Virus record (IMG/VR): IMGVR_UViG_3300028591_000104
Coordinates: 1 to 64,000 of that record
DNA from: a virus
Taxonomy: Duplodnaviria; Caudoviricetes
DNA length: 64,000 nucleotides
Strand: one strand, 5' to 3'
Below are positions 36,775 through 56,229 of this stretch, piece after piece; position 1 is the stretch's first letter; every line of letters begins with the position of its first letter. Below the pieces are notes generated by a model. The model was not told where the DNA came from. It saw only the letters and a list, made by a program, of their open reading frames with translations, and did no database searches. The position numbers and the translations under genes are program-made.

Positions 36775-36860
36775 GGAAGAGTAAACCGTAATTGGTAGCG
36801 GGCGTGGCTGTAGACCACGTGTCAGTGACTCTGGGGGTTCAAGTCCCTCCTCTTCCACCA
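36775..36860 (+). tRNA. tRNA-Tyr(GUA)
   Basis: Loop CT-GTA-GA, long variable arm, G1-C72, A73, CCA. Confidence 0.85.
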
Positions 36861-42093: not shown

Positions 42094-42310
42094 CTTATGA
42101 AGATAAGTTTGACCGTCACTATGCCTGTTGGGTGAAGAATAACCGCAAGGCCTGGCACTTTTGGAAGAGACGAACTCGTAAACAGTTTAGAATACTCCAA
42201 AAAGAAGAAATAAAGAAAGTATTAAGTGAAGAAGAATCCTAATCTTTTCTTGTTTTTTTAAAAATTTTATGTTATAATATATATGTAAAAAAGATAAGGG
42301 AGTAGATATT

Positions 42311-42598
42311 ATGAAGAAAGTTTATGTGCTTACAATGAGTAAAGACACAGTTGTTTGTGTAGCTGATTCTCTTAAAGTAATAGAAGATTATCTTAAATTT
42401 GACTGTAAGTCGATGGGTACAATTAGTACAGATTTGTTTCAGTACAATTATGAAGATGATTTTAATGGATTTTTAATTTATCAAGTTAGGGCTTTTAATA
42501 AAAATAGTAACAAGTTTACTGACTTTTTTGATTATAAACTTCATGTCGGTTTCATGAATGTTGTAGACCCTACGGAATTAGATTATACGCCTTATTAA
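42311..42598 (+). CDS. hypothetical protein
   Basis: Promoter and RBS. Confidence 0.65.
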   Translation: MKKVYVLTMSKDTVVCVADSLKVIEDYLKFDCKSMGTISTDLFQYNYEDDFNGFLIYQVRAFNKNSNKFTDFFDYKLHVGFMNVVDPTELDYTPY

Positions 42599-42606
42599 AT
42601 TAAGTC

Positions 42607-42697
42607 CGGGCGGTATGCAAGTGGTCAAAGTACGCGGACTCTAACTCCGATGCCAGTAGCTAAGGCTTCGCAGGTTCGAATCCTGCCCGCCCGACCA
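42607..42697 (+). tRNA. amber suppressor tRNA (CUA) with a tRNA-Tyr-like body
   Basis: Loop CT-CTA-AC (CTA at 42641-42643), GCGGA/TCCG stem, AAGTGGTCAAA D-loop, variable arm ending TTC, C1-G72, A73, CCA. Confidence 0.92.
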
Positions 42698-42700
42698 TAT

Positions 42701-42775
42701 GCTACTGAACCTCGTCGGCCGGGGGAGGCGCCGCAACCGCCTCGTTAGTTGGTTCGACTCCAACCGGTAGCTCCA
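42701..42775 (+). tRNA. tRNA-Cys(GCA), C33
   Basis: Loop CC-GCA-AC, U73, CCA. Confidence 0.8.
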
Positions 42776-42986
42776 TAGAAGTGAGAATTAAATTATGCGT
42801 TAAAGGATAGCCTTTGGATTGACTGGGACTCCACGCTCATAGGAGGTAGAGTAGCAGTCATTAGTTAACAGTTTCGATGCCGAGCGCAGGGTGCATAAGC
42901 TGTCTTTTTAAAACTAACCACATCTTGTTTTATTAAAAATTTTATGTTATAATATATATGTAAAAAAGAGAAAGGAAAAGAAATAA

Positions 42987-44355: not shown

Positions 44356-44427
44356 CGGGATATGGTCTAGAGGGCTAAGACGCCGGCGCGGAGCCGGAGA
44401 CGTGAGGTTCGAATCCCACTATTCTGC
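44356..44427 (+). tRNA. atypical tRNA-Pro(CGG) or tRNA pseudogene
   Basis: C1-G72 acceptor, loop CG-CGG-AG, bulged T-stem, no encoded CCA. Confidence 0.5.
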
Positions 44428-46523: not shown

Positions 46524-46594
46524 CCGGGTGTCGTATAAAGGTAGTATTCGAGTTTTGGGTACTTGAGGTAGAGGTTCGATTCCTCTCACTCGGA
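46524..46594 (+). tRNA. tRNA-Pro(UGG)
   Basis: C1-G72, A73, loop TT-TGG-GT; CCA not encoded. Confidence 0.82.
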
Positions 46595-48134: not shown

Positions 48135-48219
48135 TGGGGGGTGTCCGAGTGGTTAATGGAGCCAGGCTTTGACCCTGGTAGCTTAGCTTTCGTGGGTTCG
48201 AATCCCACCCCCTCAGCCA
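48135..48219 (+). tRNA. tRNA-Gln(UUG) with an unusual long variable arm
   Basis: U1-A72, G73, loop CT-TTG-AC, variable arm TAGCTTAGCTTTC. Confidence 0.85.
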
Positions 48220-48833: not shown

Positions 48834-51800
48834 ATGGCAACAGTTGACAATAGAAGTATTACAACTAATATGGAAGAAATATTCCTCTTACAGTCCATGG
48901 ATGGCGGCGGCTCGGGTAGTGGCGGTGGATTTAACGGTAAATATTTAGCCATTGAAGCTGCCTTAAATCAGCAATTCGGTGAACCATCTATATCAATGGG
49001 TACTAAAAGCTATGCTGCTAAATATGGAAGTATTGTAGTTGGTACTGACAGCAAATCTGGTGAATATAACACTATTACTTTTGGTAATAATAATGTAAAT
49101 ACTAGTTATGAAAGTTTAGTATTGGGTAATAGTAATGAAATACATATGACCTATCCAGCTAGACCAGAAATAGCAGGTCTTATAGTAGGTGGGCATAATA
49201 ATAAACTTTATCCTATATTGTATGATAGTAATTATAATCGAATTACTATTGAAGGAGTTGTTCCTGTTTATTATTTTGAAGGTTCTTTTTATGAAAGTTT
49301 GGATTATGTAAATCCAACCACCCCTGAGAATAATAAAATTTATGTTGATTTATTATCTGATACTGATAATAGATATTTATATTATAATGATGAGCTTTTT
49401 AGTTTTCAAGCATTGAAAAATTTAGGTTGGATAATTCCTGATACTAGTATTTTAGGTATTATTTCTGGTGAGAATAATGTATATAGAATAGGCAGCAATA
49501 ATGATTGGGCCTGTGTTTATAGTTTTGGAGATGCAAATAAAATAATTAATGAATTTAATGATAATCTTCATTTTATAGCAGGGCAAGATAACGAAATAAG
49601 TGTTGTAACTAACAAGGATAAAAATCATAATATTCCAGACTCAGAGAGTACATTAGTTGCTTTTGGTAGCCGAAATAAAATAGATTTACAAGTTAATTCT
49701 AAAGCAGGTAGTCAACTTTATTTATTAGGCTATAATAATGAATTTTCCAATGAAAATATAACTTCTAAGTTTGATAGTACTGATGTTAATTTTATATGTG
49801 GGGAAGGAAATAAACTTTTAATAAGAGATCAATATAATGATAAGAATAATATAACTGTTGAAAATAATATTATTTTTGGTAGAGGCAATAAATTAGAGTT
49901 TAGTAATTATAACTATATCTATGGACTTAATGGATATAGTAATATTGTCTTAGGTGAAAATAATAAAATTTTTGGACGTGACGCTCATAGTGGCACTAAT
50001 ACCAATCGAAATATAATTATAGGTCAAGATAATAAAATTGGTGGTAATGAATATGATGTAGAAGAAAGAAAATGTGATTCTTTACATCAAAATTATATCT
50101 TTGGTAATGATATAGAATTATCAACTACAGGAGATTTAAAAGATAATGTTTATCTTGGTAAATCTCATGGATTAACATATAATCCTTCTGTAATTAATAA
50201 CGTTATTGGTGGAAATCAAGTATTTTTTAAAGGTTCTAAATAGTGTAGTGATAATTTATTAGTTGGACCTAATTCAAGTAGTTTAATAGTTAGTGGTTCT
50301 GGTAATTTAGGCTTAGGAAAAAATTCAATTTATGGAAATAATTGCGTTGTTGTAGGCGAAGATAATACGATTAAAGCTAATATTAGAAATATCGGAGAAT
50401 ATTATTCAGGTAGTATTTATAATGAAGGTGATTTTTGTTATTATAATGATATTCTTTATATTTGTAAAAGTAATAATGTAACCGGTCCTTTTAATATGCA
50501 AAATTGGTAGGAACCTGAATTAGGTAACTATTCATATATTTTTGGTAGAAGGAATGGTGTAAATGGTGATTATAGTATTGTGATTGGAGAACTCAATGCA
50601 GTAACTGGTGATTATAATGTTGTATTTGGAAAAAATAATACTATTACTAAAAATTATAATGCAGCATTTGGTCATGACAATTCTATGAATGGTTCTTATA
50701 ATAGCTTAACTTTTGGAGAACAAAATATAATACAATCAAGTGATAGTTTTGTCGGAGGATATTATGGAAAATCGACAGGCACAACTGGTTTTTGTTTTAG
50801 CGGTTTAGGTACTACCCCCGAGGAATTTTATGGTGTAGATTTAATTTATTATTTTCCAGAAGCGGATGAAATAACAGATGAGCGCATTATTTTTAATACA
50901 GCTAAATCCGTAACTAAAATTACAATTAAATTAAATTATACTACTAAAACTATAGAAGCTTTAAAACGTGTAAGCGCAGCTGCTATTTACGCTAGTAATT
51001 TACAAAGTGGATTTGGTTAGTATGATTTAAATAATCCTGATGGGCCTCAAGTAGGAGGTACTAGTTTTGGAGTTGATCCTAGTCAACAAGATTTATTAAT
51101 AAGTTTAGAAAATCCAGAGCTTACATTAAATCTTAGTTCACCCATATCTATGCCTGCAAATAGATTTATTAAAAGAAGTGAAATATCAGGATGGACCTCA
51201 GCATGTGTCGGTTATGGTCCTAATATTCAATCTTCTGATAAATCACAAGTATTAAAAACGGGTGGAGTAGCTATAGGTACTGGTGTAATAGCTAATGGTA
51301 TGTGTCAAACTGTTATAGGCAGAGGTAATATATCAGATTCAGATAGTTTATTTATTATAGGTAACGGTAGAATTACACCAGCTTATGATGCAAACCATAA
51401 TCCTTATAGTGATACTTTAGATAGGTCTAATGCACTTACTGTAGACTGGGATGGTAACCAAGTACTTGCGGGCAAGCTTACTGTCGGCACGCAACCTACG
51501 GCCGCGAATGATGTAACCACTAAAACATATGTTGATACAGCAGATGCAGCTATATCAGCCGAAATTGAAACTCCTATAACTGGACTTAAAGCACGCATGA
51601 CAACAGCCGAAGGCGCGATTTCAGATCTCGAAACAACAGTTGGAGATAGCACATCAGGCTTAGTTAAAGATGTAAATGATTTACAAACTGAAGTAGAAGC
51701 TTCTACTACTGGATTAATAGATAGAACTACTAATCTTGAAACAACTGTAGGTGATAGTAATAGTGGTTTAGTACATGATGTAGACGACCTTGAAGATCGC

Positions 51801-52070
51801 GTAACTACACTTGAACAAGCACCCCTTCCTACTGTATCACTTTCTCAAACCAATACAACAATTACTGGTTTGTCACAAGGAGATACTGATATAACATTAC
51901 CTTCTGGATATACTGATAATAGTATTGTAGATATTTATATAGATAGATTGCATTATTGTAATATTTTAGATTTCACAATTAATCAAGGTATTGCTTCTTT
52001 CTCTACTTCTCCAATAGCAACAGGAAATGAATTAGTTCAAGTTAGTATAACAAATGTTAATATATCTTAA
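48834..52070 (+). CDS. tail fibre/adhesin-like protein (1078 aa); TAG at 50241, 50508 and 51018 read through
   Basis: Three track ORFs share one frame, separated only by TAG; continuous G-x-x-N beta-repeats, YadA-like C-terminal part and coiled coil. Confidence 0.82.
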
Positions 52071-55092: not shown

Positions 55093-56229
55093 ATGAGTGT
55101 TAGAATTGGAAAATCTGGCGACCATGTCCAATAGGGAACAGTGATTTATACCGCCGATAATGAGAGCGATATACAATCTCTCCCTACGACATGCACACCA
55201 GGTAGTACTTGTTTTTGTATTGAAACAAGTACTACTTATATATTAAATAATAAAGGTGAATGGAAAGTTAAGTCAACAGCGGGCGGAGGTGGTGAAGCTC
55301 GTGCTTACCCTTCGGCTGATGGACGTTCTTTTCCATTGAGTAATGATAATGTAACTTTTACTACTTCAAGTGAAAATTATAATGATATTGCTAAAGCAAT
55401 TAATCAAAGAGCTGGTACAACAAATACCTATAGTCCCGGACAAATGGCTAGTGCTATTACAAATATACCTATTCCCACATATCAACAGAAATCTGTAACA
55501 CCTGATTTCAGCGGTGGAAATGTTGATGTAACAGCAGATAGTGGTTATGATGCTTTAAGCTCCGTTGTTGTTTAGAAGGACAGCAATCTTGTCGCAGGTA
55601 ACATTAAGAAGGATGTTACTGTGCATGGGATTACAGGTACGTTTGCTGGCGGTAGTGACCAATCAGGAGCAATAGTAGATAGAAGCATTGTTGAATATGA
55701 AAACAACACGATTACGAACGTAGCACAGTATGTTTTTTATATCAGTAATTCCCTAAAAAAGTTCAAATCAAATAGTGTTACAAATATTGGTGAAAGTGCT
55801 TTTTATCAGAATTCAAAATTATCAGAAGTTGATTTACCAAATCTTATACATTTGGGAAATTCTGCTTTTTTTAGTTGTAGTTCATTGAAACAAGTTATTT
55901 TTCCAAAAGTTACAAGTATAGGTGGTAATTGCTTTTATAATTGTCAAAATTTACAAACAGTTGATTTATCGGAAATTACATCTTTTGGTAGTAGTTGTTT
56001 TTATAATTGTAAAAAATTTAAAACTTTAATATTAAGAAATAATGAAGTCGTTCCATTAGGAAGCGTCGGCATATTTAATTTATCGGCATTTGCAAGTAAC
56101 GGAACAGGCGGTACGTTATATGTACCACAGGCATTAATTGCTAGCTATCAGGCTACCAATGCCTGGTCAACGATTCTTGGCTATCCCAACAACCAGATCA
56201 AGGCGATTGAAGGCAGTATTTACGAGTGA
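55093..56229 (+). CDS. BspA-type leucine-rich-repeat virion protein; TAG at 55132 and 55573 read through
   Basis: GGAGG RBS; ORFs 55141 and 55621 in one frame; IG-x-x-AF-x-x-C-x-x-L repeats; N-terminus paralogous to 52189. Confidence 0.82.

Follow-up and report, generated by a model that had tools for sequence, protein, structure and literature searches.

The classical bacterial suppressor that inserts tyrosine at amber codons, Escherichia coli supF (su3+), is a class II tRNA-Tyr in which the anticodon GUA has been changed to CUA and which is charged by the tyrosyl-tRNA synthetase (TyrRS) of the cell. The searchable literature on recoded phages treats TAG as a glutamine codon (10.1101/2021.08.26.457843, PMC9523058, PMC10607447, 10.1101/2022.06.29.495998), while a Tyr isotype was predicted by Kienbeck et al. 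2024 for 2 of 180 (1.1%) phage tRNA-Sup genes (PMC10879173). The bacterial TyrRS/tRNA-Tyr pairs that have been studied use G1-C72 as the first acceptor pair and do not cross-react with systems built on C1-G72 (PMC1934993, PMC9976931). The remaining bacterial identity elements are A73, G34/U35 and the variable arm (PMC9976931, PMC6310243), and C34, the residue found in every CUA anticodon, reduces tyrosylation in the systems tested, the decrease being 36-fold for the apicoplast enzyme (PMC6310243). The bacterial-type TyrRSs of human mitochondria and of the Plasmodium apicoplast, however, charge G1-C72 and C1-G72 variants alike (PMC6310243, PMC9976931).

Here we describe a phage that appears to use a Tyr-type amber suppressor with the C1-G72 pair. 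Its genome, a single linear virus contig of 150,486 bp with 35% GC, is rated 93% complete by CheckV, and sheep and goat gut sequencing runs contain sequence of the phage. The window, by which is meant the whole stretch of DNA analysed, comprises the first 64 kb of the contig. ARAGORN identified 26 tRNAs and one tmRNA, all within 34.5-48.2 kb of the window, and no further tRNA in the rest of the genome, and the tRNA listed in Table 1 as the suppressor is the only one in the whole genome to contain a CUA loop. An earlier note on this DNA had reported a CUA tRNA with C1-G72, A73 and a class II arm; this tRNA is real, as it is called by ARAGORN and matches the Rfam tRNA model RF00005 (44.1 bits, E 2.6e-8). 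It is 91 nt long, encodes its CCA end and, in the ARAGORN drawing, has a 7-bp acceptor stem (CGGGCGG/CCGCCCG). A 3-bp D stem carries the D loop AAGTGGTCAAA; the variable arm of 19 nt has its own stem and ends in TTC, and the T arm is canonical (GCAGG-TTCGAAT-CCTGC). The anticodon loop, CUCUAAC, contains C38 where A38 is usual and sits on a stem of four Watson-Crick pairs and a G27.A43 mismatch; either C38 or the mismatch could lower the efficiency of the suppressor. With respect to the features of class II tRNA-Tyr, the molecule has the long variable arm with a stem, A73 and U35-A36, but carries C34 in place of G34 and C1-G72 in place of G1-C72. It shares C1-G72 and A73 with archaeal and eukaryotic tRNA-Tyr but not their short variable loop (class I shape). 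The ordinary tRNA-Tyr(GUA) with G1-C72, and the U1-A72 pair of both tRNA-Gln genes of the phage, are present as the note had stated. Its warning that C1 begins some other tRNAs as well holds for a single case in the genome, the tRNA-Pro(UGG) at 46524, in which C1-G72 is the bacterial norm; there is no further C1-G72 tRNA.

Table 1. Positions, strands and supporting details of the features discussed (coordinates are those of the window).
Feature	Position	Strand	Details
Ordinary tRNA-Tyr(GUA)	36775..36860	+	G1-C72, A73; ARAGORN; Rfam 33 bits
SigmaA-type promoter-like repeat before the ORF and tRNAs	42249..42285	+	-35 TTGTTT 42250-42255; TG-extended -10 TATAAT 42273-42278
95-aa ORF	42311..42598	+	With RBS; ends 9 nt upstream of the suppressor
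Tyr-type amber suppressor tRNA(CUA)	42607..42697	+	ARAGORN; Rfam tRNA model; consensus cloverleaf; tRNA-Tyr(GUA) neighbours
tRNA-Cys(GCA)	42701..42775	+	3 nt 3' of the suppressor; ARAGORN; no Rfam tRNA match above threshold
Second copy of the promoter-like repeat	42924..42960	+	Closes the unit and opens the next
Client gene, 1078-aa ORF	48834..52070	+	3 in-frame TAGs read through
Client gene, 378-aa BspA-type LRR protein	55093..56229	+	2 in-frame TAGs

TAG behaves as a sense codon throughout the genome. When it is read through, the largest ORF measures 3111 aa rather than 1294 aa, and intact genes are regained for the portal, TerL, NrdD, tail proteins and a sigma-factor-like protein; a crude gene call with TAA and TGA as stops yields a coding density of 90%. 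Plausible gene sets contain ~120 in-frame TAGs, to which the two blocks on the plus strand contribute 38 and 28 and the structural block on the minus strand 56. As all three gene blocks contain in-frame TAGs, the recoding spans early and late genes. Essential genes of the phage thus contain a stop codon in frame for which the phage encodes a decoding tRNA, the combination that defines stop-codon recoding by a suppressor tRNA. The sigma-factor-like gene (phrog_5767), on the minus strand at genome positions 146028-147107 (L005:14028-15104), contains four in-frame TAGs, and thus production of a phage transcription factor may depend on the suppressor.

The identity of the inserted amino acid was addressed by comparison with homologous proteins and genes. 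The four in-frame TAGs of NrdD (genome 97499-99781) were aligned with its 120 best homologues, many of which are from related phages and hence are not independent; the corresponding columns contain Tyr in 119, 119 and 117 of the 120, and in the fourth 65 have Tyr and 44 Phe. The few Gln residues in the closest NrdD homologues are themselves TAG codons translated under code 15, in entries (P0007, P0001) in which TAG is rendered as Gln. At the codon level the phage was compared with the two relatives that these entries represent, L116 and L117, over seven clearly real genes. TAGs in the window face TAT (10), TAC (1), TAG (9), TTT (1), AAC (1), AAT (1) and ATA (1) in the relatives, and TAGs in the relatives face TAT (19), TAC (2), TTC (1) and TTT (1) in the window. 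Tyr codons thus account for 32 of the 38 exchanges between TAG and a sense codon, the others being Phe (3), Asn (2) and Ile (1) codons; none of the 38 involves CAG, TTG, TCG, TGG, AAG or GAG, which are the other single-step neighbours of TAG, nor do CCN, CTN or TCN codons ever occur. When the comparison is made from the Tyr codons of the window, TAG ranks third among their counterparts (21 of 304). Two further alignments point in the same direction: the TAG of a GIY-YIG gene corresponds to Tyr in all ten homologues, and, at 25 TAG sites aligned with the distant Enterococcus phage H1, Tyr is found at 8, Phe at 2, Trp at 1 and Gln at none. A related phage, L118, served as a control. In its NrdD (L118:2001-4310), which is 72% identical to that of the phage studied here, TAGs lie at Gln/Glu-type columns, one of which contains Gln in 107 of 120 homologues, demonstrating that the column test distinguishes a Tyr code from a Gln code. 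Code 15 (TAG=Gln) therefore describes L118 and not this phage, and related phages appear to differ in the meaning of TAG, which is Gln for some and Tyr for others. Taken together, the NrdD columns, the codon exchanges, the GIY-YIG and H1 alignments and the L118 control lend good support, at the level of sequence comparison, to the view that TAG is read as Tyr in this phage and its closest relatives. The proposal in the earlier note that TAG=Tyr is upheld by these alignments and exchanges and by the Tyr-type body of the tRNA.

It could be argued that the suppressor is nevertheless charged with a different amino acid, be it Pro, Gln or Leu/Ser. C1-G72/A73 is the acceptor signature of bacterial tRNA-Pro, the only other tRNA in this genome to start with that pair, and G72 and A73 are determinants of bacterial ProRS (PMC9976931). 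Amber suppressors are prone to mischarging by GlnRS, and the class II shape is common to Leu and Ser tRNAs, some of the latter being among the ten nearest neighbours of the suppressor. It should be emphasized, however, that ProRS also needs G35 and G36, that bacterial tRNAs recognized by SerRS have G73 and that GlnRS prefers U1-A72/G73 (all PMC9976931). Furthermore, the suppressor resembles tRNA-Tyr in its D loop and variable arm, and the amber codons occupy near-invariant Tyr columns and exchange with TAT and TAC, never with CAG, CCN, TTG/CTN or TCN. Charging with any of these other amino acids is thus highly improbable.

The body of the tRNA is of the Tyr type. Within a comparison set of 116 unique class II tRNAs from fetched phage loci, the closest sequences to the suppressor are phage tRNA-Tyr(GUA) genes (63, 59 and 58% identity), and this kinship extends to its Tyr-type D loop and variable arm (TGCC...GGCTTC). 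The acceptor stem of the tRNA-Tyr of L056, GGGGTGG/CCGCCCC, differs from that of the suppressor only at position 5 and in the orientation of the first pair. The 3' half of the suppressor resembles Firmicutes tRNA-Pro; an origin from tRNA-Pro was discarded in view of this closely matching acceptor stem of a phage tRNA-Tyr. Variants of the suppressor are present in other samples. In one sheep sample the variable arm has lost 5 nt to reach 14 nt, the usual length of this arm in tRNA-Tyr, and a G.U pair in the D stem has become G-C, while a goat-gut variant differs in the D loop alone; the acceptor stem is unchanged in both. The conserved acceptor stem, the improved D stem and the 14-nt arm of these variants indicate that the tRNA is under selection.

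Searches for the same allele elsewhere, from which the record of the phage itself was excluded and in which absence therefore has little weight, returned unrelated sequences. An exact-pattern scan of IMG/VR matched suppressors of class I and a 3' fragment that is tRNA-like; scans of JGI metagenomes either were empty or yielded a Gln-like suppressor and an unrelated class II suppressor with A73, and a scan of GTDB genomes gave one match, in an Actinomycetota genome, where ARAGORN makes no tRNA call. The pattern of the alleles of sibling contigs, described below, retrieved an unrelated GC-rich contig only. Searches for related loci found none with TerL and, with the neighbouring DUF2828 gene, identified relatives of no more than 50% identity that lack a Tyr-type suppressor. 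The class-II-length CUA tRNAs of IMG/VR that have a canonical T loop are mostly Gln-like (typically U1-A72, G73) with an added variable arm, and ~3 are of the A73 type. The phage itself contains a tRNA-Gln(UUG) of 85 nt with a long variable arm (window 48135-48219), the body of which is like that of most of these IMG/VR suppressors.

The suppressor is part of a small unit that comprises a promoter, the 95-aa ORF, the suppressor itself and a tRNA-Cys, the two copies of a promoter-like repeat at its ends lying within a 71-nt direct repeat (42239-42309 versus 42914-42984, 86% identical). The promoter-like repeat consists of TTG... (TTGTTT in the 71-nt repeat), a 17-nt spacer and TG-n-TATAAT followed by an RBS. 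The genome contains it 11 times, in each case on the plus strand (window 26699-47202 and genome 84836); it is found also in sibling contigs and is deeply covered in sheep and goat runs. Contigs from other sheep and goat runs join both copies of the repeat, which fits an exchange of whole units, whereas gaps in the coverage of the unit in some runs are uninformative. The 95-aa ORF has no Pfam or PHROG match; a gene of 93-98 aa is called at the corresponding position in the sibling loci, and a stretch of the window that overlaps the ORF (42255-42503) is 71% identical to the DNA of L108. The tRNA-Cys, which is presumably co-transcribed with the suppressor, is unusual: it contains C33 rather than the near-universal U33, its anticodon stem has 6 bp, its GC content is 65% against 35% for the genome, and its best Rfam match is tRNA-Sec (25.6 bits). 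One contig of an RNA library has its first base at 42287, which offers a weak hint of transcription only, as such contigs may contain DNA and thus do not prove expression. Further downstream, at window 44356-44427 and directly upstream of a DUF2828/TROVE-like gene, the Rfam tRNA model finds a match of 42.4 bits that ARAGORN does not call and in which a 5-nt loop replaces the anticodon loop.

The sibling contigs L108/L120, L109 and L121/L122 have flanks that are 88-97% identical to the window, yet for the region 42.33-42.92 kb blastn finds no counterpart in either L108 or L109; the suppressor unit (promoter, 95-aa ORF, suppressor and tRNA-Cys) is diverged or replaced relative to the siblings. 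At the same place, just 5' of a tRNA-Cys, the siblings carry three other Tyr-type CUA alleles (L108:3391-3477, L109:3421-3507, L121:990-1075), all of which have G1-C72 and A73, and the order suppressor then tRNA-Cys is kept in all sibling loci. The tRNA-Cys of L121, which has the normal loop CTGCAAA, is related to that of the window, and as the latter is nearer to it than to those of L108 and L109, the suppressor unit is a mosaic. The T loops of the sibling suppressors, GUCGGCA or GGCAGCA, lack equivalents of T54 or A58. As a result of these aberrant T loops ARAGORN misses the sibling suppressors, which will thus be overlooked in routine annotation. When the window and sibling suppressors are folded jointly they form a cloverleaf with compensatory changes in 15 of 24 pairs; at pair 1-72 four of the sequences have G-C, and that of the window alone has C-G. 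The tmRNA of the phage (window 38982-39351; tag peptide ANDYALAA) is found with 97.6% DNA identity in L109.

With respect to charging, the earlier note had suggested that the C1-G72 tRNA may need a TyrRS encoded by the phage, with which it would form a natural orthogonal pair. The literature on which this idea drew, setting bacterial G1-C72 against C1-G72 systems, had been rendered correctly (PMC1934993, PMC9976931). An orthogonal pair could be envisaged if a dedicated archaeal/eukaryotic-type TyrRS were encoded on the unsequenced part of the phage, the genome of which is rated 93% complete only, or in an unusual host. C1-G72 together with A73 is indeed the Tyr acceptor identity of archaea and eukaryotes (PMC1934993), and the acceptor stem is unchanged in the variants from other samples. 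CPR bacteria, moreover, combine a C1-G72 tRNA-Tyr that has a variable arm with an archaeal-type TyrRS (PMC5370408), leaving a small chance of a host enzyme of this kind. A six-frame search of the 93%-complete genome with PF00579, however, gave no candidate TyrRS at E<=1, although the same search detected TyrRS in 14 of 14 control genomes, archaea included. Nor did four other phage contigs (12-69% complete) with a C1-G72 tRNA-Tyr(GUA) contain a PF00579 match. The genome contains no RF-1 or PCRF domain, and no phage release factor or known RF1 inhibitor was found in it. In addition, siblings with near-identical flanks use G1-C72 suppressors with the same TAG=Tyr code, and the tRNA-Tyr(GUA) of the phage itself has G1-C72. 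The relatives of its TerL, which are from Enterococcus phages H1 and EF1, Geobacillus virus E3, phAss-1 and Bacillus phages, point to an ordinary Firmicutes host. The notion of a phage-encoded TyrRS therefore finds no support in the genome, and the orthogonal pair as a whole is improbable.

The flipped first pair is not confined to the suppressor. Among 19 unique class II tRNA-Tyr(GUA) genes of other phages, three have C1-G72/A73 (loci L101:9441-9525, L050:4151-4235, L042:1933-2017 and L035:6110-6197), which also argues against the pair being the mark of an orthogonal system. The tRNA-Tyr(GUA) genes of L101 and L045, which are 78% alike, differ in the 1-72 flip. This independent recurrence may suggest that the flip is adaptive, enabling the suppressor and some phage tRNA-Tyr to evade a host factor that inspects the acceptor end (such as an anti-phage tRNA toxin or nuclease), or tuning charging or suppression, while the host TyrRS still charges the tRNA. 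The replacement of the unit relative to the siblings, which suggests turnover of alleles, is consistent with such a role, and anti-phage toxins that inspect the acceptor stem exist (PMC11559606). The recurrence could equally mean, however, that the host TyrRS is indifferent to pair 1-72, and the suppressor tRNA is not linked to any gene of defence or counter-defence; we consider an adaptive flip unlikely. A broader proposition is that C1-G72 is functional in one of two ways, in that it either defines a class of phage tRNA-Tyr, sense tRNAs as well as suppressors, requiring a rumen-Firmicutes TyrRS of non-canonical 1-72 specificity or permits escape from a host factor that recognizes G1-C72. This we regard as doubtful. 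Were such a non-canonical TyrRS to exist, the suppressor would be partly insulated from host translation, providing a natural, tunable and near-orthogonal form of Tyr amber suppression.

We propose that the tRNA is the phage's own Tyr-inserting amber suppressor and that it is probably charged by a bacterial-type TyrRS of the host that tolerates C1-G72. It should be emphasized that charging by an ordinary host TyrRS is not guaranteed, as the bacterial pairs studied do not cross-react with C1-G72 systems. In the proposed mechanism, a host-type sigmaA extended -10 promoter (the first repeat copy in Table 1) would drive transcription of the 95-aa ORF, the suppressor and the tRNA-Cys. RNase P and 3' processing would then release the suppressor, in which CCA is already encoded. 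C34 and C1-G72 notwithstanding, the host TyrRS would recognize the tRNA by A73, U35/A36 and its long variable arm. The class II tRNA-Tyr body, with CUA replacing GUA, would decode TAG as Tyr, such that the suppressor would compete with RF1 at ~120 TAG codons, which would be read as Tyr in early and structural genes while TAA and TGA stay stops. The C1-G72 pair would represent a flip that is specific to one lineage and affects a single allele of the suppressor common to the clade, and would not imply a private synthetase.

No earlier description of a phage that recodes TAG to Tyr was found in the searchable literature beyond the isotype prediction of PMC10879173. This study extends our understanding of alternative genetic codes in phages by indicating that amber reassignment is not tied to Gln, since within a set of related NrdD genes TAG appears to be Tyr in one lineage and Gln in another. 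There is also a practical consequence. Gene callers and databases translate TAG-recoded phages with code 15, and close relatives of this phage are stored with Gln at TAG sites where homologues have Tyr; their proteins are thus systematically mistranslated, the near-invariant tyrosines of NrdD included. The C1-G72 allele, in turn, offers a natural experiment on how strictly bacterial TyrRSs inspect the first acceptor pair, which bears on the design of orthogonal Tyr pairs.

Several described systems resemble the one reported here in part. Similar to the gut phages that use code 15 (Lak, crAss-like phages and phAss-1, among others), the phage encodes a tRNA(CUA) in a large tRNA cluster and has many TAGs in essential genes; in both cases there is no phage synthetase and standard decoding is presumed for the host, and TerL shows kinship with phAss-1 and Enterococcus phages EF1 and H1. 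In contrast with the code 15 phages, which insert Gln by means of a tRNA-Gln, the phage inserts Tyr and the body of its suppressor is a class II tRNA-Tyr; its TAGs are in early genes (NrdD and a DHH-family gene) as well as late genes. Furthermore, no Rfam match to a theta (HDV-like) ribozyme lies behind the suppressor, which is followed after 3 nt by the tRNA-Cys. The phage tRNA-Sup genes of Kienbeck et al. include Tyr-like suppressors, but these are ribozyme-linked and their isotype is a prediction without codon-level evidence (PMC10879173). The Mesodinium nuclear code 29 shares TAG=Tyr, but is eukaryotic and reassigns TAA too. Archaeal and eukaryotic tRNA-Tyr, and the orthogonal pair of M. 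jannaschii TyrRS and tRNA(CUA), have C1-G72 and A73, with CUA in the engineered version, but lack the long variable arm and rely on an archaeal-type TyrRS, whereas here the arm is present and no TyrRS was found. The tRNA-Tyr of CPR bacteria combines C1-G72, A73 and a long variable arm as the suppressor does, but has GUA and an archaeal-type TyrRS (PMC5370408), whereas the phage is a relative of Firmicutes phages and its siblings use G1-C72. In its anticodon the suppressor can be compared with supF, as both carry the same GUA to CUA change in a bacterial class II tRNA-Tyr. The difference is that supF, with G1-C72 and A38, is a laboratory mutant, whereas the tRNA described here, with C1-G72 and C38, belongs to a natural, genome-wide recoding.
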